Assembly (NCBI GenBank): GCA_038142325.1
Contig: JAYQJW010000002.1
Location: forward strand, 779,328 to 843,327
DNA from: Gammaproteobacteria bacterium
GTDB lineage: Bacteria; Pseudomonadota; Gammaproteobacteria; GCA-002705445; GCA-002716945
Direction: 5' to 3'
Length of the DNA: 64,000 bases
Under the pieces are notes generated by a model. That model worked only from the letters and a program-made list of their open reading frames with translations, did not search any database and was not told where the DNA came from. Below, in pieces: positions 37,417 through 49,357 of this stretch (positions are counted from its first letter, which is position 1; every line of letters starts with the position of its first letter). Both the position numbers and the translations under genes were made by a program.

Positions 37417-38708
37417 TTACTTTCTTAATTTTGCTGAATTTGAATGTGAATACAATCCTTCACAGTCTGCCAATTGTGATGCTATTTCAGCTAATTCTTT
37501 TGAATGAGATTTTGATATCTTCATTAGACTTGTGCGTTTTAGAAAATCATAAACACCTAGAGGTGAGGCATACTTAGCTGAACCATTCGTTGGCAAAACA
37601 TGGTTTGGGCCTGCGCAATAATCTCCAAATACTTCAGGACTATTTTCTCCTATAAAGATTGCGCCTGCATTCCTTATTTTATCCTCTAATTTATATCTTT
37701 CATATCCAAATATTTCTAGATGCTCAGGAGCAATATTATCAGCTATCTCAACTATACTCTTGAATAGTATTTGCTTTTATAAAAAGGCCTCTAGAGGTAA
37801 GAGATTTTTTTATTATGTCTTTTCTCGTTTGATGAGTTAATAACTTATCAATCTGTTTGTTAACATCATTGATTAACTTATCACTAGTAGACAAAAGAAT
37901 TGCTTGAGCAAGTTCATCATGCTCAGCTTGCGCAAACATATCAGTAGCAATTAGCTCTGGATTAGTATTTTTATCTGCGATTATGAGCACCTCTGATGGA
38001 CCAGCAAAACTATCAATGCCAACTTTACCAAAAACTTTCTTTTTAGCAGTCGCAACATAGATGTTGCCAGGTCCAACGATTTTATCGACTGCTTTGAATA
38101 GTCTTTGTGCCAAAAGCAAGCGCGGCAATAGCATGTGCTCCACCAAATTTGAAAATCTTATCAACTCCACATAAATCAGCTGCAACTAAAACTAGTGGAT
38201 TTAATTTTCCATTAATAGGAGGGCATGTCATAACAATATTTTTTACGCCAGCAATCTTTGCTGGAATAGCATTCATTAGAACTGTAGAGGGATAACTTGC
38301 TTTGCCGCCAGGCACATAGATTCCCACGTTCTCAATAGGTACTACTTTTTCACCTATTTTGGAGCCCTTAACATTGATATGCCAGCTTCTTAATTTTTGA
38401 TTATTAGAGAATTTTTTAATATTACGCATAGCCTGTTTAAGACTTGACAGAGTTTTTTTTGATACAGATGAATATGCAGCATTTATTTCTTTTTTAGTTA
38501 CTACTGAATCAGAAATTTTTTTATAAGATGTTTTATCATATTGTTTAATAAACTTACGTAATCCAACATCGCCATACCTTTCAACATGATCTAAAATTTT
38601 TTGAACATTTTGCTCTATAAGGTATGAGTTCGCTTGTTTGAAAGATACAAATTGAGATAGTTTGCTATTAAAATTAGCTTGAGATGAATTTAAAACCTTA
38701 ATTTTCAT
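37417..38708 (-). CDS. hisD: histidinol dehydrogenase (two frameshifts, near 38097 and 37760)
   Basis: GIYVPGG, GPGNIYV, AGPSE, QAEHD, APEHLE and GPNHVLPT motifs across three frames. Confidence 0.95.
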
Positions 38709-39758
38709 TTATCGCTTGCAATGTTTCATCAATGCTTGTTATAAGGTCTTCGGTTTCACTCCAACCAATACAAGAATCGGTAATACTTTGTCCATATTTA
38801 AGCTTTTTTCTTTATCATCAATTTTTTGATTTCCCTCAACAAGATTGCTTTCTAACATTAATCCTATAATATTTTTTTCACCAGATAATAATTGCTGTCT
38901 CACGTCCTCAACAACATTGACTTGTAGCTTATAGTTTTTGTGACTGTTCGCATGACTCGCATCAATCATAATATTAGGCAACATGCCATTATCTACAAGT
39001 ATTTTTGAAGATTCCTTAACATCTTCTGATGTATAATTAACTTTATTATTACCGCCACGATGTATTATGTGACAATCCATGTTTCCTGAGGTATTAAAAA
39101 TAGCTGATTTACCTTCTTTAGTTACAGAAAGAAAGCTATGAGAGTGTCTAGCTGCGTTCATTGCGTCTATCGCGATTTGTAGACTTCCATCAGTTCCATT
39201 TTTAAAACCAACTGGGCAAGATAATCCAGATGCTAATTCGCGATGGCTTTGACTCTCAGTCGTCCTTGCGCCAATAGCGCCCCAACTTATTAGATCTGAG
39301 ACATACTGAGGACTGACTAAATCTAAAAATTCATGTCCACATGGTATTTTCATTTCTGCTAAATCTATTAGTAACTGTCTAGCTAACCTGATGCCTTTAT
39401 TTATCTTAAATGATCCATCAAGATCTGGATCGTTTATTAGGCCTTTCCAACCTACTACTGTTCTTGGTTTTTCAAAATAAACTCTCATGATTATCAAACA
39501 ATTATCTGAAAGACTTTGGTTTAATTTTTTTAGATTAGTCGCATATTCTTTAGCAGCATCAATATCGTGAATTGAACATGGACCTACAACAATTATAAAT
39601 TTTTTACTGGATTTATTTAAAATTGAGGATATTTCATCTCGGGCATTAATTATAGTTTCTATACCATCAGAGGACGGAGACATAGACTCAATAAGCTCTC
39701 TTGGACTAACAAGCTCTTGAGTATTTATAATTCTTAAGTCATCAGTCTTATTGGACAT
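38698..39758 (-). CDS. aroG: class I DAHP synthase (AroF/G/H family; C-terminal frameshift near 38805)
   Basis: VGPCSIHD, RVYFEKPRT..GWKG, IGARTTESQ and DASHANS motifs; YGQSITDSCIGW is in the shifted frame. The paralog label is approximate. Confidence 0.88.
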
Positions 39759-40365
39759 ATTTCTTTATTTCATCCAGAAAAAAATTAATTTCATCCCTTT
39801 TGATTTTGTAAGAAACCTTGTTAGCAATCAATAAAGATGAGATGTCTGAAATTTTATCATATTCTTTAAGTCCATTCTCTTTGAGAGTGTTTCCAGTTTC
39901 TACTATGTCTACAATAAAATCTGATAATTTCAATACTGGCGCCAACTCTACTGAACCATAGAGTTCTAAAATAGAACACTGTAATCCAATATGCTCAAAA
40001 TAACTTTTAGTAATATTTGGATATTTTGTAGCAACTTTCATGTTGTTAAAATATTTAGATTTAGCTTTGCCTGCAACCACTAGCCTACACTGTGATAACT
40101 TCATATCATGCAATCTATAATGGTTTTCTTTATCATCTTCCATAAGTGTATCAGCACCAACGATACCGAGGTCAACTTTGCCTGAATCAATGTATACCGG
40201 TACATCAGAGGCTTTAATTACTATAACTTCCAAATTCTTATAATTAGTAGGGATAATTAATTTTCTAGATGTTATTGGATTGTATTTACACTCAATACCA
40301 ATTTTTTGTAAAATAGCGTTACATTTTTCCAGGATTCTACCTTTGGCTATAGCTAATCTAATCAT
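39748..40365 (-). CDS. hisG: ATP phosphoribosyltransferase, short form (HisZ-dependent)
   Basis: AIAKGR, VATKYP, GSVELAP and DIVETGNTL motifs; 205 aa with no regulatory domain. Confidence 0.95.
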   Translation of the reverse strand: MIRLAIAKGRILEKCNAILQKIGIECKYNPITSRKLIIPTNYKNLEVIVIKASDVPVYIDSGKVDLGIVGADTLMEDDKENHYRLHDMKLSQCRLVVAGKAKSKYFNNMKVATKYPNITKSYFEHIGLQCSILELYGSVELAPVLKLSDFIVDIVETGNTLKENGLKEYDKISDISSLLIANKVSYKIKRDEINFFLDEIKKYVQ

Positions 40366-40376
40366 GGATATGCATT

Positions 40377-41636
40377 TTACATAGGTTTTCTTGAAATCCT
40401 AGCACCAATTAACTGTAGTTTCTCTTCAATACAGTCATAACCTCTATCAATATGATAAACTCTTCCAATCTCAGTAGTTCCTTTTGCAGCTAAACCAGCT
40501 AAAATTAAACTGGCAGAAGCTCTGAGATCTGTAGCCATTACTGGAGCGCCATTTAATTCCTGGATGCCTGTAATTTCTGCTGTATTTTCTCTTATTTTAA
40601 TTTTAGCCCCCATCCTCAAAAGCTCTTGTGCATGCATAAATCTATTTTCAAAAATATTTTCTTTAACAATACAGTCTCCCGAACCTAGACAATTTAGTGC
40701 TGTCATCTGTGCTTGCATATCAGTGGGAAATAATGGATAAGCATTAGTCTCAATATTCACTGCCTTCGGACGTTTTTTCATTTTTATTCTCACTGAATTT
40801 TTTAAGACTTTGATATCAACTCCTGACTCAGTAAGTTTATCTATCACAGCTTTAGAGTGAGATGGAATAATGTTGCGTATTTCAACATCACCTTTAGTTA
40901 TTGCTGCAGCAACCATAAAAGTTCCAGCTTCTATTCGATCAGGTAAAGGTTTGTGTGTTGTACCTTTAAGTTTATTTACGCCTTCTACTGTAATCTTATT
41001 TGTTCCATGACCTGAAATCTTTGCACCCATCTTAATTAAAAAATTGCACAAATCAGATATCTCAGGCTCACATGCGCAATTTTCTATCACAGTTTTTCCC
41101 TCAGCTAGCGTGGCAGCCATTATTATATTCTCAGTTCCGGTGACAGACTTACTAGGGAAAACTATTTTCGCGCCTTTTAGCCTATGAGCTTTTGCAGATA
41201 CATAGCCACCTTCAACAGATATTGTTGCTCCCATTTTCTCTAATGCAGATAAATGCATATCAACAGGCCTCATTCCAATTGCACACCCTCCTGGCAGGGA
41301 AACTTTAGCCTCACCAAATCTAGATAATAGAGGCCCTAAAACTAAAATTGATGACCTCATTGTCTTTACAAGTTCATATGGGGCATAGAGTGTATGAATT
41401 GTTGATGAGTCTAGAGAAATATGCATTAGTTCATCCATAGTGACGCTAACGCCCATCTGAGTTAAGAGCCTTGTGGTTGTTGTAACGTCTTGAAGGTGAG
41501 GGATGTTCTCAAGTTCAACTGAACCATTTGAAACCATAACAGATGCACACAACATTGGTAAAACAGAGTTCTTAGCTCCTGAAATTTTTACTGAGCCAGT
41601 TAATGATTGTTGACCTTCTATTAAAAGCTTGTCCAT
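40377..41636 (-). CDS. murA: UDP-N-acetylglucosamine 1-carboxyvinyltransferase
   Basis: GAKNS, LPGGCAIG, PDRIE, FPTDMQ and DRGY motifs. Confidence 0.98.
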   Translation of the reverse strand: MDKLLIEGQQSLTGSVKISGAKNSVLPMLCASVMVSNGSVELENIPHLQDVTTTTRLLTQMGVSVTMDELMHISLDSSTIHTLYAPYELVKTMRSSILVLGPLLSRFGEAKVSLPGGCAIGMRPVDMHLSALEKMGATISVEGGYVSAKAHRLKGAKIVFPSKSVTGTENIIMAATLAEGKTVIENCACEPEISDLCNFLIKMGAKISGHGTNKITVEGVNKLKGTTHKPLPDRIEAGTFMVAAAITKGDVEIRNIIPSHSKAVIDKLTESGVDIKVLKNSVRIKMKKRPKAVNIETNAYPLFPTDMQAQMTALNCLGSGDCIVKENIFENRFMHAQELLRMGAKIKIRENTAEITGIQELNGAPVMATDLRASASLILAGLAAKGTTEIGRVYHIDRGYDCIEEKLQLIGARISRKPM

Positions 41637-41687: not shown

Positions 41688-44139
41688 ATGCTTAAAAGAA
41701 TTTCATTAATGTATGAGCGTTACATTCTCCATAACCCTATTAGAGTATTACTCTTTTTGGCATTAATTTTATCTTTCTCTATAGTTAATATTAAATACTT
41801 CGAGCTAGATGCCTCTGCAGACACTCTAATTCTTGACGATGATGAAGATTTAAAAAATTTTTCGTGATACCAACGAAAAATATAAATCAAGTGATTTTAT
41901 GATATTAACAATTACGGATAAGTATCAAGATACATTTTCACCAGAAACACTATCTTTTATAAAAACTCTAACACAAGAGATAACTAAAGCTGATTATGTT
42001 GAATCCGTTACCTCGATTACTAATATTCCATTAGTTACAAGTTCCCAAAAACCATTAACGGAACTGATCAATGAAGTTCCAAACATTTTAAGTGAAGATA
42101 TAAATAAAAAATTAGCTAGAGAAGAAATATTATCTAGCCCGATATATAAAGATTTGATAATTAGCTCTGATGCAAAAACTTCTGCGATGCAGATAGTAAT
42201 AAGAAAAAATCAAAATCTTGTAGACGCATTAAATAAAAGAGATATGCTCTATCAAAAATATTCAAGCAATCCCATATATGAAGATGCGTACGTTGAATCA
42301 AAAGCAGCCTATGATTCTATTGCAAAAGAAGAAAAGGAAAATATTGGCGCATTAATAAAAGAATTAAGAGTCATACAAGATAAATACTCTTCAGAAAGAT
42401 ATGAGATTAGGCTTGGCGGAATACCAATGATTACTGATGATATGATTACTTTTATAAGAAATGATTTAGTTAATTTTGGCATCGGTGTATTGGCTTTTAT
42501 TCTTGTGACTCTAATCATAATATTCAGAAAAGTAATTTGGGTTATAGCCCCAGTAATTAATTGTATTTATGCAGTTATATTTATGATTGGATTACTGGGA
42601 TATCTTGACTGGAAGGTTACAGTCATATCATCTAATTTTATATCTCTTATGCTTATTTTAACATTATCGATGAATATTCATATTATTGTACGGTATAGAC
42701 AAATATACAGTTCTAAGAAAAATAGTAAATTTAACTCAATATCAGAAACGATGAAAAAAATGATTTGGCCATGTCTTTATACCGCACTAACCACGATTGT
42801 TGCATTTGCATCATTAGTGTTTAGTGACATCAAACCCGTTATTGATTTTGGATATATGATGGTTATCGGGCTAACTACTCTTTTTATAACATCTTTTACT
42901 CTGCTTCCATGTGTAATTATAATTCTCTCAAATGATGAAAACTCAATAATCAATAACAGTCAAACTAGTTCATTCATAACGGATATACTAGCAAATGTTG
43001 CTCGTAATCATGGAAAATACATTTATGCAGCAACAGTTTTTATTTCAATAATTACGCTTTATGGACTTTTTCAGCTTAAAGTTGAAAACAGTTTTATAAA
43101 CTACTTCAGATCAGATACCGAAATCCACAAAGGAATGAAATTGATAGATAATGAGTTGGGTGGAACAACACCAATGGATATAATTTTGAAATTTGATAAT
43201 TCGCAGAATTCTATAGATGATGATTTTGATGACTTATTCGGTGGCGACGAGGACATCAAAAGTTCAAATTGGTTTACTACAGAAAAAATTAATAAAATAA
43301 AATATGTTCATGATTATCTAGACAACAACCAATACATAGGTAAAGTGTTATCTCTTGCTTCATCAATTCGGGTTGCTGAAATTGTGAATGATAATAAAGA
43401 GTTAAATAGCCTTGAAATGTCTTTGCTTTATAAAAAACTTCCTGATGAGGTTAAAGACATTGCGGTTAATCCGTATTTATCAATTGAACATAATGAGGCA
43501 AGAATTAGTGTTCGAATACTTGATTCTGATAAAGACCTCAGACGATCAGAGCTTATTAATACCATCAAATCTGATCTTACTACTGACCCTTACTTGAAAT
43601 CAGATAATATCACCGTAACTGGCATACTAATTCTATACAACAACATGCTTCAAAGTTTATTTGATTCGCAAATTAAATCTTTAGGTTTTGTAATGCTGAT
43701 TATTGCTCTAATGTTTCTGCTACTCTTTAGATCTTTTAGGCTAATGGTAATTGGAATAGTACCTAATCTGTTATCAGCGTTATTAGTTTTAGGAATAATG
43801 GGTATAATGAAACTTCCATTAGATATGATGACTATTACTATTGCAGCTATTACTGTTGGAATAGCAGTTGACAATAGCATTCATTATATTTATCGATATA
43901 GAGAAGAATACTATACTTATCAGGACTACCTCAAAACTGTAAGCGTGTGTCATTCCAGTATAGGTAAAGCAATATTTTTTACAGGTATAACAGTAATTTT
44001 TGGTTTCTCCATCTTAATCTTATCAAATTTTATTCCTACAATAATCTTTGGTACTTTGACAGGCCTTGCTATGTTTGTTGCGTTAATATCAGTTCTGACC
44101 TTACTACCTAGACTCCTTATCTCATTGAAACCACTTTGA
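41688..44139 (+). CDS. MMPL/RND-family lipid transporter (frameshift near 41855)
   Basis: Start at ATG 41688 (MLKRIS...FELDASADTLILDDD); two repeats of a periplasmic domain plus TM block, with GIAVDNSIHY in the second repeat. Confidence 0.88.
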
Positions 44140-44143
44140 TAAT

Positions 44144-44730
44144 CTATTTATTTAAAGTATTTATAAGTGAATCTATTCCTTTTTTTGAAACATGCTCTCT
44201 AAAATCCACTCTGTAGTTTTTCATTAAACTAATTCCATCAAAAATAATATCGTAGACCTTCCAACCAGAATTGTTTTTTATAAGTCTGTAATGAACATCA
44301 ATATCTCCACCGGGTATGAGATACTTTGACTTTACATAGGCGATGTTATCTCTTTCACCTGGGACATAAGGTAAAAACTGGACCTTCTCTCCGTCAAAAG
44401 CTGTAATAGATTTCATATATGTACTTGTCATTCTATAGCGAAATGCACTGATAAAATTTTCTTTTTGATTATCTGTTAAGTTAAGCCAAACTTTTTTTCC
44501 AAGAATTATTTTTGACATGAGTTCAATGTCTAATTTAGGCATCACTACAGTGTTCATCTTATCTCTTAAAATTTTTCATCATTTTCAAATCTATCCTTAT
44601 ATTTCGATATTAAATCAGAAATTTCCGTGACTGAATCTTTCAAAAAACCATCGGGGGTGTCTGATGTATGTGCCAAGCTAGAAATGCACAAAAACATTAC
44701 TAAGATTGATATTTTTTTAATCACACTCAT
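44144..44730 (-). CDS. mlaC: periplasmic phospholipid-binding protein MlaC/Ttg2D (frameshift near 44572)
   Basis: Signal peptide; MSKIILGK.W, YRL...GWKVYDIIFDGISLMKNYR and GIDSLI motifs. Confidence 0.88.
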
Positions 44731-44754
44731 AATTTTAGTATATAATCTGGTTAT

Positions 44755-45497
44755 ATGATGCACAAGGTTGTAAAAAAATTATCTTTATTGACATTATTAA
44801 TAATTGGATCCATGTCTATTTCAAATATTGGATACTCATCTGATAATGATCCTTTGGAGCCAATGAATAGAGCGATTTTCGGATTTAATGAAATTGTAGA
44901 TGATAATATTCTAGAGCCTGTTGCGAAGGGTTATCGTTATGTGACGCCTGATCCTGTAGAGAGAAGTGTTAGCAACTTCTTCAATAACCTTTGAGAGATA
45001 AACACTATTATAAATAGTGCTCTTCAAATGAAAATAGATAAAACCATTACGTCAAGCTCTAGACTGGCAATAAATTCAACCGTGTGTGTACTTGGGCTTT
45101 TTGATGTAGCTACATCACTTGGCATTCAACGTGAAAGAGAAGATTTTGGTCAAACTCTTGGTTTCTATGGTATATCTTCAGGCCCATATTTAGTACTTCC
45201 ATTTTTTGGACCAAGTTCATTTAGAGATGCGCCTGGCTTCTATGCAGATGTAATGATGGAAAAAGTATTTCACCAGTTTATACAGAGTTACACCACGAAG
45301 AAAGACAAGCAATACAGGCAACAAATGTCATAGATACAAGAGCTAATTTGCTCAAAGCTACAAAAATTCTTGATACAGCGGCGAAAGATAAATACATATT
45401 CTTGAGAGAGTCATACCTTCAAAGAAGAGCGAAATTAGTTACTGATGGCAAAGACGTACAAGACTTCGAAATAGACGTTCTTGAGATTAATTACTAA
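44755..45497 (+). CDS. mlaA: MlaA/VacJ family protein (in-frame TGA at 44992-44994 and a frameshift near 45262)
   Basis: DPLEPMNR, NFFNNL, EDFGQTLG, GPYLVLPFFGPS and D.YIFLRESYLQRR motifs. Confidence 0.9.
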
Positions 45498-45530: not shown

Positions 45531-46464
45531 ATGATAGATGCCATTTTATTTTTATCAATAGGACTTGTCTTCTTAATTTATGGAGCAAACCTTCTAATCA
45601 CATCTACAGATGAATTTTCAAAAAAACTTTCAATTTCAGGTTTTATAGCAAGTTTTTTCTTAATTGGTATTGCTACATCTGCACCAGAAATTTTTATTTC
45701 TATTGAGTCTGCTCTACAAAATGAAACTATACTCGCTGTTGGGAACTCAATAGGCTCAAATATTTCTAACTTAGCATTAGTATTCTGTTTTGGCAGTATT
45801 GTTTATGAAAAAAAATCAAAAAACAATGTTTATTCCAAGTCTACCCTTTTTTACTATGATAATTTTAACAATAGTATGTTTTAGCGTTATCTATCCTGAT
45901 AGCATCTTCGATAAAACGGATTCATATGTTTTGCTTGCATTATTCTTTTTCTCTTTATTATTATTTAATTCAAAAAATGAAATTCCATCAGAATCTAGTG
46001 AAAACTTGATAAAAGCTAATATTTCAAAAATACTTCTTTATGCAATCATTGGAATTACGTTACTAATATATGGATCAAAATTTTTTATAGATGGCGCTAC
46101 TAATATTGCCCTTATGTTTGGAGTAAGCGCATATGTAATAGGATTAACTTTGACAGCACTTGGAACCAGCTTACCTGAATTAGTAACTACAGTACAATCC
46201 GCAAGAAAAGGAAAGAGTCAGTTTATAATTGGGAACATATTGGGTTCAAATATTTTTAACATAGGCGTTGCAATGAGCATTGCAGGACTCATCAATCCCG
46301 CAATAATTGATTCGAATGCATTTTTACGCGACATTTTGTTGCTTTTTTTATCTACACTATTATTTTATGTAATAACTAAATCAACAAAACATACTATAAA
46401 GGTTGTATACTCTATTTTGTTAATAACGATATATTGTATTTATATATTGATGATACTTAAATAA
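45531..46464 (+). CDS. yrbG: calcium/sodium antiporter (CaCA family; frameshift near 45790)
   Basis: Alpha repeats ATSAPE..GNSIGSN and GTSLPE..GNILGSN; upstream of kdsD. Confidence 0.88.
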
Positions 46465-46466
46465 AA

Positions 46467-47425
46467 ATGAAAACTTCAAATAAGCAATTTGCTAGACAGA
46501 TTCTTAATAAAGAAATAAGTGCTTTACGAAGAACCGCAAAACTCATAAATAATGATTTCGATGAAGCATGTCAAATTCTATCTAACATAAACGGAAAAGT
46601 AATCACTTTAGGAATGGGTAAGTCAAGCTTCGTTGCAATGAAAATGGCAGCAACCCTTAGTAGTACAGGTACCTCTGCGTTGTTTCTTCATCCAGCTGAT
46701 GCTTTGCATGGTGATATTGGGGTCATCAAAAAATATGATACGGTAATTATTTACTCTAATTCGGGAGAAACAGAAGAGATTATAAAGTTACTCCCATTAT
46801 TGAAAATTCTAAAATGCTCCTTAATATCAATTACGGGTAATATAAAATCAACTCTTGCTAAGCATTCCAAGGTTTTACTTGATGCATCTGTAGAAAAAGA
46901 AGCATGTCCAAATAACTTAGCGCCGACTTCAAGTATAGTGTGTGCTCTTGCTATATCAGATGCGCTTGCATTGACTGTAGCTGAAAAAAATAATTTTTCA
47001 GTTCAGGATTTTGCAAAAACACACCCAGAAGGTGCTTTAGGAAAAAGATTATTAATTACAGTCTCAGATATCATGACTAAAAAAAACATCCCGCTGTTAA
47101 AAGTGACTGATAAATTTATCAACTTAATAAAAAAGACTACCAAATCAAATTTAGGTCTCGCTGTAGTAGTTGATAATAAAAATAATATTCAAGGCGTAAT
47201 ATCAGATGGTGATATTAAGAGGATAATGCAAAAGAACACGAAATTTATGATTTAATTTTAAAAGATATTATGACTACTGATCCGTTATTGATTACTCCGG
47301 ATAGTCTTGCTGCTGAAGCACTTAATATCATGGAAGAAAATAATATAGATGCAATACCAGTAATAGAAAAAAGAAAAATTCTTGGGATTGTAACCTTAAA
47401 AGATGTTATCAAATCAATAAATTGA
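46467..47425 (+). CDS. kdsD: arabinose-5-phosphate isomerase (frameshift near 47241)
   Basis: GMGKS, HGDIG, EACPNNLAPTSS and HPEGALG motifs plus a CBS pair; shifted frame ends at TGA 47425. Confidence 0.93.
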
Positions 47426-47426
47426 A

Positions 47427-47975
47427 ATGTTAGATAATAAAAAATATATTCCTTTTTACAAATCTTTGTATACAGAAGAATTAATACAAAAAGCTAGCCA
47501 GATAAATTTATTAGCATTTGACGTTGATGGGGTATTAACTGATGGCGGTTTATATTTTGATGCCAATGGTAATGAAGAGAAAAGATTTTTTGCTCAAGAT
47601 GGTCATGGAATAAAAATTATTCAATCCATAGGCATAAAAACAATGATTATTTCTGGAAGAGAAACAGGTTCAGTTCTCCATCGTGGTCAAGAATTAGGCA
47701 TAGAATATATAATACAAGGTAGCAGGGATAAGCTTAAAAGTTTTAATGAACAAAAATTATCAATACCTTATGAGGAAGTGTGTTTTGTTGGAGATGACAC
47801 AGTTGATATTGAACTTTTGGAGAAAGTAGGATTATCTGTTATCGTTCCAAATGCCAATACCCTGCTTAAGTCGCTTAATTTTGATTGGACCACTAACAGG
47901 AGTGGTGGAAACGGAGCTATAAGAGATGTTTGTGATCTTATTTATTTTTCTAAAATCATAAATGAAAAAGCCTAA
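47427..47975 (+). CDS. kdsC: KDO 8-phosphate phosphatase
   Basis: FDVDGVLTDG, DGHG, VGDD..D and GGNGAIRDVCD motifs. Confidence 0.95.
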   Translation: MLDNKKYIPFYKSLYTEELIQKASQINLLAFDVDGVLTDGGLYFDANGNEEKRFFAQDGHGIKIIQSIGIKTMIISGRETGSVLHRGQELGIEYIIQGSRDKLKSFNEQKLSIPYEEVCFVGDDTVDIELLEKVGLSVIVPNANTLLKSLNFDWTTNRSGGNGAIRDVCDLIYFSKIINEKA

Positions 47976-48630
47976 GCTACTACTTTTATTTTGTATAACA
48001 ATCATATTTATAATGAGCAGCTTGTTTGCAAGTACTGTTGATAAAGATACTAAAATTAAAAATAAAATATTTAACTTCTCTTCAGAAAAAATTGATGCAG
48101 TTATGTCTACTGAGTGGAAGCTAAGTGGACAATATCTCGAAAAATATGAAAATAATTCCACTCTTATTAAGAATCCTAATTTAAAGTTATATAAGTCTAA
48201 TTTTTCTACCGATATATTATCTGACACAGCTTTTGATCCAACAGGTGAAATGATTGAAATTTATCTCAAGAATAATGTTTACATAAATAGAACTGACTCA
48301 TCGAATGTAAGCATTATTAAATTATATACATCTTATGCAATTTTTTATTTATCAAAAGATTTAGTCGAAACTGACCGAGATGTTACTATAATTACATCTG
48401 ATTCAATTACTACAGGAAATGGATTATCAGCTAACCTTGAAAGTGGCTTAATTTCGGTGCTTAGTAATGCTGAGAGGAAAATTAAAGACGGTGAAAACAC
48501 AAGAATAATTAAAGGCAATCAGATGATTTATAACACTAAGACAAAAAAATGGATAGTGAAGAATCAGTCGGCATCAAAACTTAAAAATTCAATTATCAAG
48601 AAAGTAAAAACAACATTCAGCTTGGATTGA
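47962..48630 (+). CDS. lptC: LPS export protein LptC with an LptA-like C-terminal extension
   Basis: N-terminal hydrophobic segment and LptC-like jellyroll pattern (ETDRDVTI...TGNGLSANL...VLSN); sits between kdsC and lptB. Confidence 0.75.
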   Translation: MKKPKLLLLFCITIIFIMSSLFASTVDKDTKIKNKIFNFSSEKIDAVMSTEWKLSGQYLEKYENNSTLIKNPNLKLYKSNFSTDILSDTAFDPTGEMIEIYLKNNVYINRTDSSNVSIIKLYTSYAIFYLSKDLVETDRDVTIITSDSITTGNGLSANLESGLISVLSNAERKIKDGENTRIIKGNQMIYNTKTKKWIVKNQSASKLKNSIIKKVKTTFSLD

Positions 48631-48631
48631 T

Positions 48632-49357
48632 ATGTCAATATTGAAATCAGATAACTTAAAAAAAGAATATGATAGTAAAACTGTCATACACGATATCTCT
48701 CTAGAGGTAAACTCAGGAGAAATAGTAGGGCTTCTTGGTCCAAATGGTGCTGGTAAAACCACAACATTCTACATGATTGTTGGATTGATTAAGGCTGATA
48801 ATGGTAAAATTATCATAGATGATGAAGATATAACTCAAGAGCCAACCCACAATAGATTTAAACACGGTATAAGCTATCTCCCTCAAGAACCATCGATATT
48901 TCGTGATTTATCAGCCAAAGATAATATCCTCTCTATTCTAGAAATTAATAATAAAATGAACTCAAATCAAAACGAAAAAACTTTAGAGTATTTAATTGAA
49001 AAATTTGACTTAAAAAAATTTCTTAACACAAAAGGTGTTCTTTTATCTGGTGGAGAGAGAAGAAGGGTTGAAATAGCCCGCGCAATAGCCTTGAAACCAA
49101 AATTCTTGCTGCTTGATGAACCATTTGCTGGTATAGATCCGTTATCAGTTATAGATATACAAGAAATTATTTCAGAACTAGCGCATGAGGATATAGGTAT
49201 ACTTATTACAGATCATAACGTCAGAGAAACTCTAAAGATTTGTGATAGATCATATGTGATAAATTCTGGAAAAGTCCTTGCTTCTGGCAAAGCAAAGGAG
49301 CTTGTTAAAAATGAAATTGTCAAAAAAGTATATCTAGGTGAATCATTTAAATTATGA
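48632..49357 (+). CDS. lptB: LPS export ABC transporter ATPase
   Basis: GPNGAGKT, YLPQEPSIF, LSGGERRRVEIAR and TDHNVRETL motifs. Confidence 0.97.
   Translation: MSILKSDNLKKEYDSKTVIHDISLEVNSGEIVGLLGPNGAGKTTTFYMIVGLIKADNGKIIIDDEDITQEPTHNRFKHGISYLPQEPSIFRDLSAKDNILSILEINNKMNSNQNEKTLEYLIEKFDLKKFLNTKGVLLSGGERRRVEIARAIALKPKFLLLDEPFAGIDPLSVIDIQEIISELAHEDIGILITDHNVRETLKICDRSYVINSGKVLASGKAKELVKNEIVKKVYLGESFKL

Follow-up and report, generated by a model that had tools for sequence, protein, structure and literature searches.

A conserved Mla locus without MlaFEDB, with an RND-type transporter gene beside mlaC and mlaA, in small marine gammaproteobacterial genomes

Which protein could act at the inner membrane in a bacterium that encodes MlaC and MlaA and in which the ATP-binding cassette (ABC) complex MlaFEDB is not found? 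This question is raised by a 64,000-nucleotide stretch of DNA (the window, from here on) from a Gammaproteobacteria bacterium (GenBank assembly GCA_038142325.1, contig JAYQJW010000002.1, positions 779,328 to 843,327), in which a gene for an RND-family transporter, an mlaC-like gene and mlaA together fill positions 41688 to 45497, between murA and yrbG-kdsD. The assembly (G000 below) has 1.096 Mb in 9 contigs and a completeness of 98.46. Mla is commonly presented as a system of six proteins, general in Gram-negative bacteria, and the direction in which it moves lipid has been argued over for years. The locus has in common with the Mla system of E. coli (MlaA-OmpC/F, MlaC and MlaFEDB) the members of the MlaA and MlaC families (PF04333 and PF05494) and the chromosomal site, between murA and yrbG-kdsD-kdsC-lptC-lptB. 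It differs from it by the lack of MlaD/MCE, MlaE, MlaB and a specific MlaF, by an RND gene at the position of mlaFED, by the presence of mlaA inside the locus and by MlaC and MlaA proteins that score under the NCBI equivalog cut-offs. Its gene content and its conservation throughout the order establish it as a real ABC-less variant of Mla. The further reading, that this is an Mla pathway devoid of both ABC and MCE components, in which the RND protein would replace MlaFEDB as the inner-membrane partner of MlaC and MlaA and lipid would likely travel in the retrograde direction, we consider about evenly balanced between right and wrong.

Gene content of the locus and its conservation in the order

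The gene order in the window, taken from the open reading frame (ORF) listing and Pfam searches, is hisD, hisG and murA on the reverse strand, the RND gene on the forward strand, mlaC on the reverse strand and mlaA on the forward strand, followed by yrbG, kdsD, kdsC, lptC and lptB, all forward. The three central genes sit where the initial annotation had placed them. The stop codons of the RND gene (44139) and mlaC (44144) leave the 4-bp gap that it described, the ATG codons of mlaC (44730) and mlaA (44755) leave the 24-bp gap, and there is no room for further genes, with no other ORF of at least 40 amino acids showing a family match in the interval. This layout stands; what had been overlooked is that the frames of the RND gene, mlaC, mlaA, yrbG and kdsD are broken in this assembly, a point treated below. 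The transporter gene, of the HAE3/MMPL type (41688..44139, + strand), is split into pieces of 59 and 746 amino acids and matches PF03176 (MMPL) with 119 bits at 41899..44139. The mlaC-like gene for a periplasmic lipid carrier (44144..44730, - strand, with a GTG at 44763 as alternative start) gives 129.5 bits with PF05494 (MlaC) on a 137-amino-acid piece (44144..44557), and mlaA, of the VacJ family (44755..45497, + strand), matches PF04333 on each of its three pieces. The intact orthologues score 138 bits with PF05494 (MlaC orthologue P0002, 206 amino acids) and 251.6 bits with PF04333 (MlaA orthologue P0003, 247 amino acids). Both MlaC and MlaA have one locus each in the whole genome, which is this one. 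On the NCBIfam equivalog models the MlaC-like protein obtains 54 bits with MlaC against a cut-off of 195 (E. coli MlaC reaches 447 in the same library) and the MlaA protein 136 bits against a cut-off of 375.

The initial annotation had taken mlaFEDB to be missing from the locus, and no complete set was found elsewhere in the genome either. There are 0 matches to MlaD/MCE (PF02470) in G000, and phmmer with E. coli MlaD also gave none; MlaE (PF02405) has 0 matches in G000 and 0 in G013, a genome of the same family, and was likewise not found by phmmer; MlaB had no match in G000 at E <= 0.01, in a single-sequence search that is weak for a protein as short as MlaB; and no specific MlaF is present in G000, the best match of E. 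coli MlaF being LptB (109 bits with MlaF, 299 with LptB).

We have examined the order with a sample of 28 genomes at least 80% complete, which represent one family and six genera. MlaD was found in none of the 28. MlaC and MlaA were each found in 25 of them, and in 17 out of 17 among the high-quality genomes, always as single-copy genes about 1 kb or less apart. Completeness is only 81-87% in the three genomes that lack MlaC or MlaA, one of which has the RND gene at a contig end. The layout murA/RND/mlaC/mlaA(/yrbG-kdsD-kdsC-lptC-lptB) appeared in nine loci of three genera and in 15 of 15 loci of the order from a second collection, so that the linkage of the RND gene to mlaC and mlaA, first described from the window, is kept in every locus of the order that was fetched.

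Variation within the order was seen at the start of MlaA (window 44755-44870). Of 15 loci searched with a pattern, 10 lack a lipobox cysteine, all 7 loci of the window's genus among them; a clear L/I/V-S-S/G-C is present in four loci, and L048 has FSSSC, which the pattern missed. Many of the MlaA proteins of the order may therefore not be lipoproteins.

The transporter and its association with the loss of MlaFEDB

The intact orthologue of the transporter (P0001, 816 amino acids) matches PF03176 at 117-119 bits in two stretches. Its hydropathy profile gives 12 transmembrane (TM) segments together with two loops in the periplasm, each of about 200 amino acids (TM1 17-35, loop 36-255, TM2-6 260-413, TM7 445-463, loop 464-657, TM8-12 662-803). 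An aspartate of TM10 (D728 in P0001) is invariant. The best NCBIfam match is HAE3 (TIGR00921) with 177 bits against a cut-off of 352, and orthologues score 184 and 175 bits on this model, likewise under the cut-off; on the BstA model the protein obtains 30 bits, with a cut-off of 1400. The nearest solved chains are those of HpnN (PDB 5khn and 6wu0, E 1e-10) and MmpL3 (E about 8e-5), in both cases over the C-terminal TM bundle only. These structures have the same build of 12 TM segments and two loops, while their sequence similarity to the protein studied here is very low and their partner proteins differ.

An alignment scan for relatives of this RND protein, with one genome per species, confirmed 547 of 599 candidate stretches, of which the best 80 were kept. 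These 80 comprise 15 loci from the order, 28 from other gammaproteobacteria and 37 with neither neighbour, most of the last labelled Pelagibacteraceae or Alphaproteobacteria and some of them on short contigs. The 28 loci, from metagenome-assembled genomes of 1.4-6 Mb, carry an RND orthologue (45-50% identity) followed by mlaC on the same strand, with no mlaA in the locus. They also contain murA (23 of 28), hisD (17 of 28) and hisG (16 of 28). A small BolA-like (ibaG) ORF comes after mlaC in all four loci inspected (Pfam was run on one), and kdsD lies on the far side of the RND gene in two loci labelled Acidiferrobacteraceae. In the record of E. coli K-12 the order is yrbG-kdsD / mlaF-mlaE-mlaD-mlaC-mlaB-ibaG-murA. 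The arrangement RND-mlaC-bolA/ibaG-murA-hisGD matches this layout, and these loci therefore represent the canonical mla locus, in which a single RND gene has taken the place of mlaFED(B). Compared with them, the order has undergone a local rearrangement, in which the RND gene was inverted, ibaG disappeared and mlaA was brought in. The idea that mlaC of the order is what remains of mlaFEDCB, still in the original orientation, is weakened by the co-directional RND-mlaC pairs of the other gammaproteobacteria. A candidate MlaF remnant, c51, located upstream of the RND gene in two loci, gave only a weak DUF72 match and was discarded.

In an IQ-TREE phylogeny of 54 MlaC-family proteins the carrier of the order groups with the MlaC proteins linked to the RND gene at the murA site (97/94) and apart from the HpnM-type clade (100/99); E. 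coli MlaC falls inside the RND-linked side on a branch of length 4.1, joined to another long branch, and its placement was not used. In a FastTree phylogeny of 99 RND proteins the RND of the order groups with Pelagibacterales-type and other marine alphaproteobacterial RND proteins (support 90) and outside the main gammaproteobacterial RND-mlaC clade, in a tree flagged for composition bias and from which no transfer is claimed. Lateral transfer between streamlined planktonic bacteria could explain this grouping, as could attraction due to the low GC content that they have in common.

We have also analysed a class-wide sample of 201 genomes from about 195 families, all at least 90% complete, calling the RND gene at a chosen threshold of E <= 1e-80. 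The RND gene is present in 29 of the 201 and MlaE in 185. MlaE is absent from 12 of the 29 RND-positive genomes versus 4 of the 172 RND-negative ones (Fisher p = 1e-8, kinship ignored) and, without the window's family, from 10 of 27 RND-positive genomes (p = 3e-7), both values being overstated because related genomes are not independent. Two unpublished genomes, G118 and G196, are counted among the 172 and are MlaE-positive; without them the figure is 4 of 170. Outside the family there are 14 MlaE-less genomes. The ten that have the RND gene contain MlaC (10/10) and MlaA (9/10), versus one in four for each protein in the four that do not have it. Eight of these ten RND-carrying genomes are without any MCE domain, and in the remaining two the only MCE protein is one of about 550 amino acids with three MCE domains. 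Several of these MlaE-less genomes are of 3-4 Mb, indicating that the pattern is not due to genome reduction alone. One of them, G177 (locus L135; 3.6 Mb, with neither MlaE nor any MCE domain), has a co-directional mlaA-RND-mlaC operon, the tightest linkage seen. The RND gene, mlaC and murA are neighbours in G215, and in G129 the RND gene is divergent from yrbG-kdsD. Among the small genomes of Pelagibacterales type that carry the RND gene, an MCE protein was found in 0 of 10 and MlaC, elsewhere in the genome, in 9 of 10 (0 of 9 and 8 of 9 without the unpublished G090).

The initial annotation had proposed that the ABC machine was replaced in situ by a single transporter driven by the proton-motive force. 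The replacement in situ gains from the RND orthologue found at the canonical mla site in 28 other loci. It is not an event of this lineage, the swap being ancient and widespread. The RND gene co-occurs with MlaE in 17 of the 29 RND-carrying genomes, so that it is not always a replacement. The wider proposal would be that a distinct HAE3-type RND clade serves an alternative Mla as its proton-driven component at the inner membrane and has displaced MlaFEDB, often at the same site, in the whole order, in at least nine more gammaproteobacterial families of the 195-family sample and apparently in the Pelagibacterales-type bacteria. We place it slightly below an even chance.

Besides the pairs discussed so far, G044, a 2.7-Mb gammaproteobacterium (loci L126 and L127), has five MlaC-family genes: one after an AcrB-type RND gene, one before a second HAE3-type RND copy, one beside mlaFED, one beside mlaA and one after the RND gene at the murA site. 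RND pumps of several kinds thus seem to have MlaC-like carriers as partners.

Proposed mechanism and its alternatives

In the pathway that we propose, the HAE3/MMPL-type RND protein would reside in the inner membrane, presumably driven by the proton-motive force, and take over the role of MlaFEDB there, as partner of MlaC in the periplasm and MlaA in the outer membrane. MlaC would touch the RND protein and pass lipid. There is a eukaryotic precedent for a soluble carrier handing lipid to an RND-type membrane protein, the transfer from NPC2 to NPC1. The cargo would be glycerophospholipid, as for Mla, and not hopanoid. The most likely direction would be retrograde, from the outer membrane through MlaA, MlaC and the RND protein to the inner membrane, as part of the housekeeping of outer-membrane asymmetry. 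We lean to this direction because MlaA has been kept and because a YhdP-like bridge protein is available for bulk export. The latter is encoded outside the window (G000 C2:877523-880106) by a gene of about 860 codons with one frameshift, whose product matches residues 1037-1254 of YhdP in phmmer (E 1.5e-17), and it is the only AsmA-like protein found in this 1.1-Mb genome. TamB has 0 Pfam matches in G000, and phmmer with E. coli TamB, AsmA and YdbH found none. An AsmA match of 18 bits in G000 is spurious, its frame belonging to a 411-amino-acid protein with a MoaC domain.

The same three-part machine could also run in the anterograde direction, the RND protein pulling phospholipid or lysophospholipid out of the inner membrane at the expense of the proton gradient and delivering it by way of MlaC to MlaA. 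HpnN and MmpL3, the studied pumps of this branch of RND proteins, are exporters, which goes against a retrograde flow, and HpnN is the nearest solved chain. Furthermore, since TamB, AsmA and YdbH were not found, the export capacity of the cell may be thin. On the other side stand the presence of the YhdP-like protein, the fact that MlaA is built to remove lipid from the outer leaflet, as established in E. coli, and the location of the RND gene at the site of the importer MlaFED, none of the three being decisive. An anterograde model has been proposed for the mlaA-mlaC-RND operon of Campylobacter jejuni (bioRxiv 10.64898/2026.08.28.747810). Taken together, we regard export by this machine as unlikely.

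Equally unlikely in our opinion is that the genes are neighbours and not partners, the RND protein being a general amphiphile exporter, and MlaC and MlaA either acting without it, by spontaneous transfer or with another acceptor, or being leftovers. This is the place to collect the observations that weigh against the proposed pathway. The RND gene is a widespread and often free-standing gene: it adjoins mlaC in only 2 of the 21 class loci fetched (out of 27 outside the family), and the other 19 have unrelated contexts, with no mlaC or mlaA nearby. RND gene and mlaC are also unlinked in the Pelagibacterales-type genomes. In the window the three genes alternate in strand, mlaC being convergent with the RND gene and divergent from mlaA, so that they do not form one operon. 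The RND protein meets no curated NCBIfam cut-off and belongs therefore to a subfamily without a name. Besides the 17 of 29 RND-positive genomes that still have MlaE, some MCE protein is kept by 18 of the 28 genomes with an RND-mlaC pair (2 of 5 and 16 of 23), and one of these has a full mlaFED and another mlaC elsewhere, indicating that the RND protein is not simply an alternative to MlaFEDB. The coupling of the RND protein to Mla is thus inferred from gene position in a part of the family and from the phyletic pattern. What argues for partnership, against a mere neighbourhood, is that MlaC and MlaA outlast the loss of MlaE almost always where the RND gene is present and seldom where it is not, that 28 loci have co-directional RND and mlaC genes at the mla site, that G177 has the mlaA-RND-mlaC operon, and that the RND gene, mlaC and mlaA are all intact frames across the six genera of genomes of about 1 Mb.

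The broken frames of the window raise another possibility, namely genuine decay of the cluster in this strain, which would make it a series of pseudogenes in a locus for envelope lipids. None of the RND gene, mlaC, mlaA, yrbG and kdsD has an intact frame in this assembly. Each contains a 1-bp indel, and mlaA has in addition an in-frame TGA. In the RND gene an A run at about 41852-41857 is one base too long (A6 here, A5 in the relative G003); mlaC misses one A at about 44567-44571; mlaA has the TGA at 44992-44994 and misses one A at about 45259-45264; yrbG has a 1-bp insertion at about 45788-45793; and kdsD is cut short by a base missing at 47246/47247. In favour of decay, five indels of 1 bp and a nonsense codon fall within 5.8 kb. 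This corresponds to 0.86 indels per kb, compared with about 0.29 per kb that break a frame in the genome as a whole (from a relative 94-97% identical). The relative G003, with 96.08% identity over 8,501 bases at the locus, shows exactly five 1-bp gaps, one per gene, and its five genes are whole (RND 816, mlaC 206, mlaA 247, yrbG 310 and kdsD 319 amino acids). A comparison of the whole of G000 with some 0.39 Mb of G003, taken from 20 of about 90 contigs (at most the first 20 kb of each), gave 363,222 aligned bases with 145 isolated 1-bp indels, of which 104 shorten a frame of G000, 3 a frame of G003 and 38 neither. The 104 include both insertions (60) and deletions (44), and 37 lie outside homopolymers, which fits raw consensus error. 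In the window itself infB, hisD and the gene of a phosphoenolpyruvate (PEP)-utilising enzyme are split by the same kind of indel, and the indels beyond the locus are at about 1280, 7917, 37762, 38098, 53054 and 53483.

The state of the break sites was also checked in contigs from four metagenome runs of four studies; the comparison was made with contigs only, and parts uncovered or of mixed depth were not taken as evidence of absence. The intact state was found in every run at five of the six break sites, and at the kdsD site in three of the four (none in run X9). The extra A of the RND gene is missing ('left out 1') in contigs from all four runs. At position 44992 the whole depth in the four runs reads G, giving GGA in place of TGA; a recoding of this TGA is ruled out, given the GGA in relatives and contigs and the frameshift nature of the other breaks. 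Against this, several of the indel sites show the repaired state in no more than a part of the depth in runs X5, X6 and X9, indicating that the state of the window may exist there too. We conclude that the breaks are very probably consensus errors of this assembly and not biology, and that genuine decay is highly improbable. With the frame breaks most likely being assembly errors, we treat the three genes as a functional system of the organism. Any pseudogene call in this genome needs a comparison with relatives. In this connection, a region of G000 outside the window (C2:208700-211200) has at least six short consecutive frames on one strand, starting with a MoaC-domain fragment, and a density of breaks of about 2.4 per kb, far above the average indel rate of the genome.

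Of the genes that flank the locus on the murA side (all - strand), hisD (37748..38708) is present as two frames, 37748..38185 and 38082..38708, which match positions 186-299 and 8-188 of the PF00815 (Histidinol_dh) profile, with the indels relative to G003 at 37762 and 38098. hisG (39748..40365) matches PF01634 (HisG) with 174 bits, and murA (40377..41636) is intact, with 419 amino acids and an E of 3.8e-140 in phmmer with E. coli MurA. On the other side (all + strand), yrbG, of the Na/Ca-exchanger family (45531..46464), matches PF01699 on both its pieces, and kdsD (46467..47425) has SIS and CBS domains (PF01380 and PF00571). The genes at the kdsC, lptC and lptB positions (47427..49357) finish the conserved flank, the name kdsC resting only on synteny and tblastn among relatives. 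LptC (47962..48630) matches PF06835, and LptB (48632..49357; G000 C2:827935-828681) obtains 299 bits with E. coli LptB. The lptC ORF (222 amino acids) stops one base before the start of lptB and, unlike in E. coli, no gene of the size of lptA is located between them, an adjacency found likewise in the relative locus L014. Phmmer with E. coli LptA had no match in the genome, in a single-sequence search that also missed LptC.

Finally, an export system for hopanoids or other polycyclic lipids, of the HpnN/HpnM/HpnS kind, is the least credible explanation and is largely refuted: it has in its favour the same architecture of RND, MlaC-like and MlaA-like proteins (PMC12324291), HpnM (TIGR03481) as the best NCBIfam match of the MlaC-like protein, HpnN as the second-best of the RND protein and a weak sterol-sensing-domain match of 24 bits, and against it the scores, the phylogeny and the missing cyclase. 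The initial annotation had seen no hopanoid genes in the window, and this extends to the genome, with 0 matches to squalene-hopene cyclase (PF13243) in G000 and none in the 28 genomes of the order. The RND protein obtains 122 bits on the HpnN model TIGR03480 (cut-off 752) and 88 on NF052374 (cut-off 1100), and the MlaC-like protein 73 bits on the HpnM model (cut-off 160), which is passed by two MlaA-linked carriers of hopanoid producers, true HpnM proteins used as positive controls (170 and 187 bits). In the RND phylogeny the 96 members of the family are separated from three HpnN proteins by a branch of 3.1 with support of 100. Furthermore, G044-G048, five larger genomes with the RND-mlaC pair, are hopanoid producers: all five have the cyclase and, elsewhere, a true HpnN (826-950 bits), whereas their RND protein of the murA site scores 72 on the HpnN model. 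In all five a second MlaC-family gene adjoins mlaA, and in two of them this mlaC-mlaA pair comes after a radical-SAM/DUF3463 gene and/or a family-2 glycosyltransferase gene, which we take to be HpnH-like and HpnI-like. This second pair matches HpnM and HpnS as Lawrence et al. proposed them (PMC12324291). The RND protein of the murA site is a different system, which coexists with HpnN/HpnM.

Relation to known systems and biological meaning

Trios of RND, MlaC-like and MlaA-like proteins are already in print as hypotheses, both for hopanoid producers and for C. jejuni. The HpnN-HpnM-HpnS hopanoid shuttle was proposed as a Mla-like system with these three kinds of components (Lawrence et al., bioRxiv 2025, PMC12324291). 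It belongs to the hopanoid clusters of cyclase-positive bacteria that keep the canonical Mla, while here there is no cyclase, the RND protein and the carrier miss the HpnN and HpnM cut-offs and the RND protein forms a separate clade. In C. jejuni the operon mlaA(Cj1371)-mlaC(Cj1372)-RND(Cj1373) led to the hypothesis of an RND-coupled lipid route (bioRxiv 10.64898/2026.08.28.747810). There too mlaA, mlaC and an MmpL-like RND gene are adjacent in a non-hopanoid context, a likeness in gene layout. According to the same preprint, C. jejuni keeps MlaFED elsewhere and its operon is co-directional and translationally coupled, whereas in the order studied here the ABC/MCE complex is absent throughout and the strands alternate. 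In the full-text literature searched, we found no Mla system lacking the ABC/MCE complex with a non-HpnN RND gene at the mla site, and nothing on a link between the RND gene and the loss of MlaFEDB.

The family described here adds a large unnamed RND clade set apart from HpnN, the name that automatic annotation tends to give to its members. A natural exchange of engine, from ATP/MCE to a proton-driven RND protein, with MlaC and MlaA kept, would be a clean comparative test of what MlaC needs from its partner, and the variant asks which way lipid flows once the energy source changes. It also bears on how the very small genomes of free-living marine bacteria build an outer membrane with a reduced set of transporters, here a YhdP-like protein and the putative RND-MlaC-MlaA system, with no TamB, AsmA, YdbH or MCE protein found. 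If the proposal is true, some of the most abundant bacteria of the ocean would keep their outer membrane without an MCE/ABC lipid transporter, and there would be two unrelated machines to which MlaC can dock.

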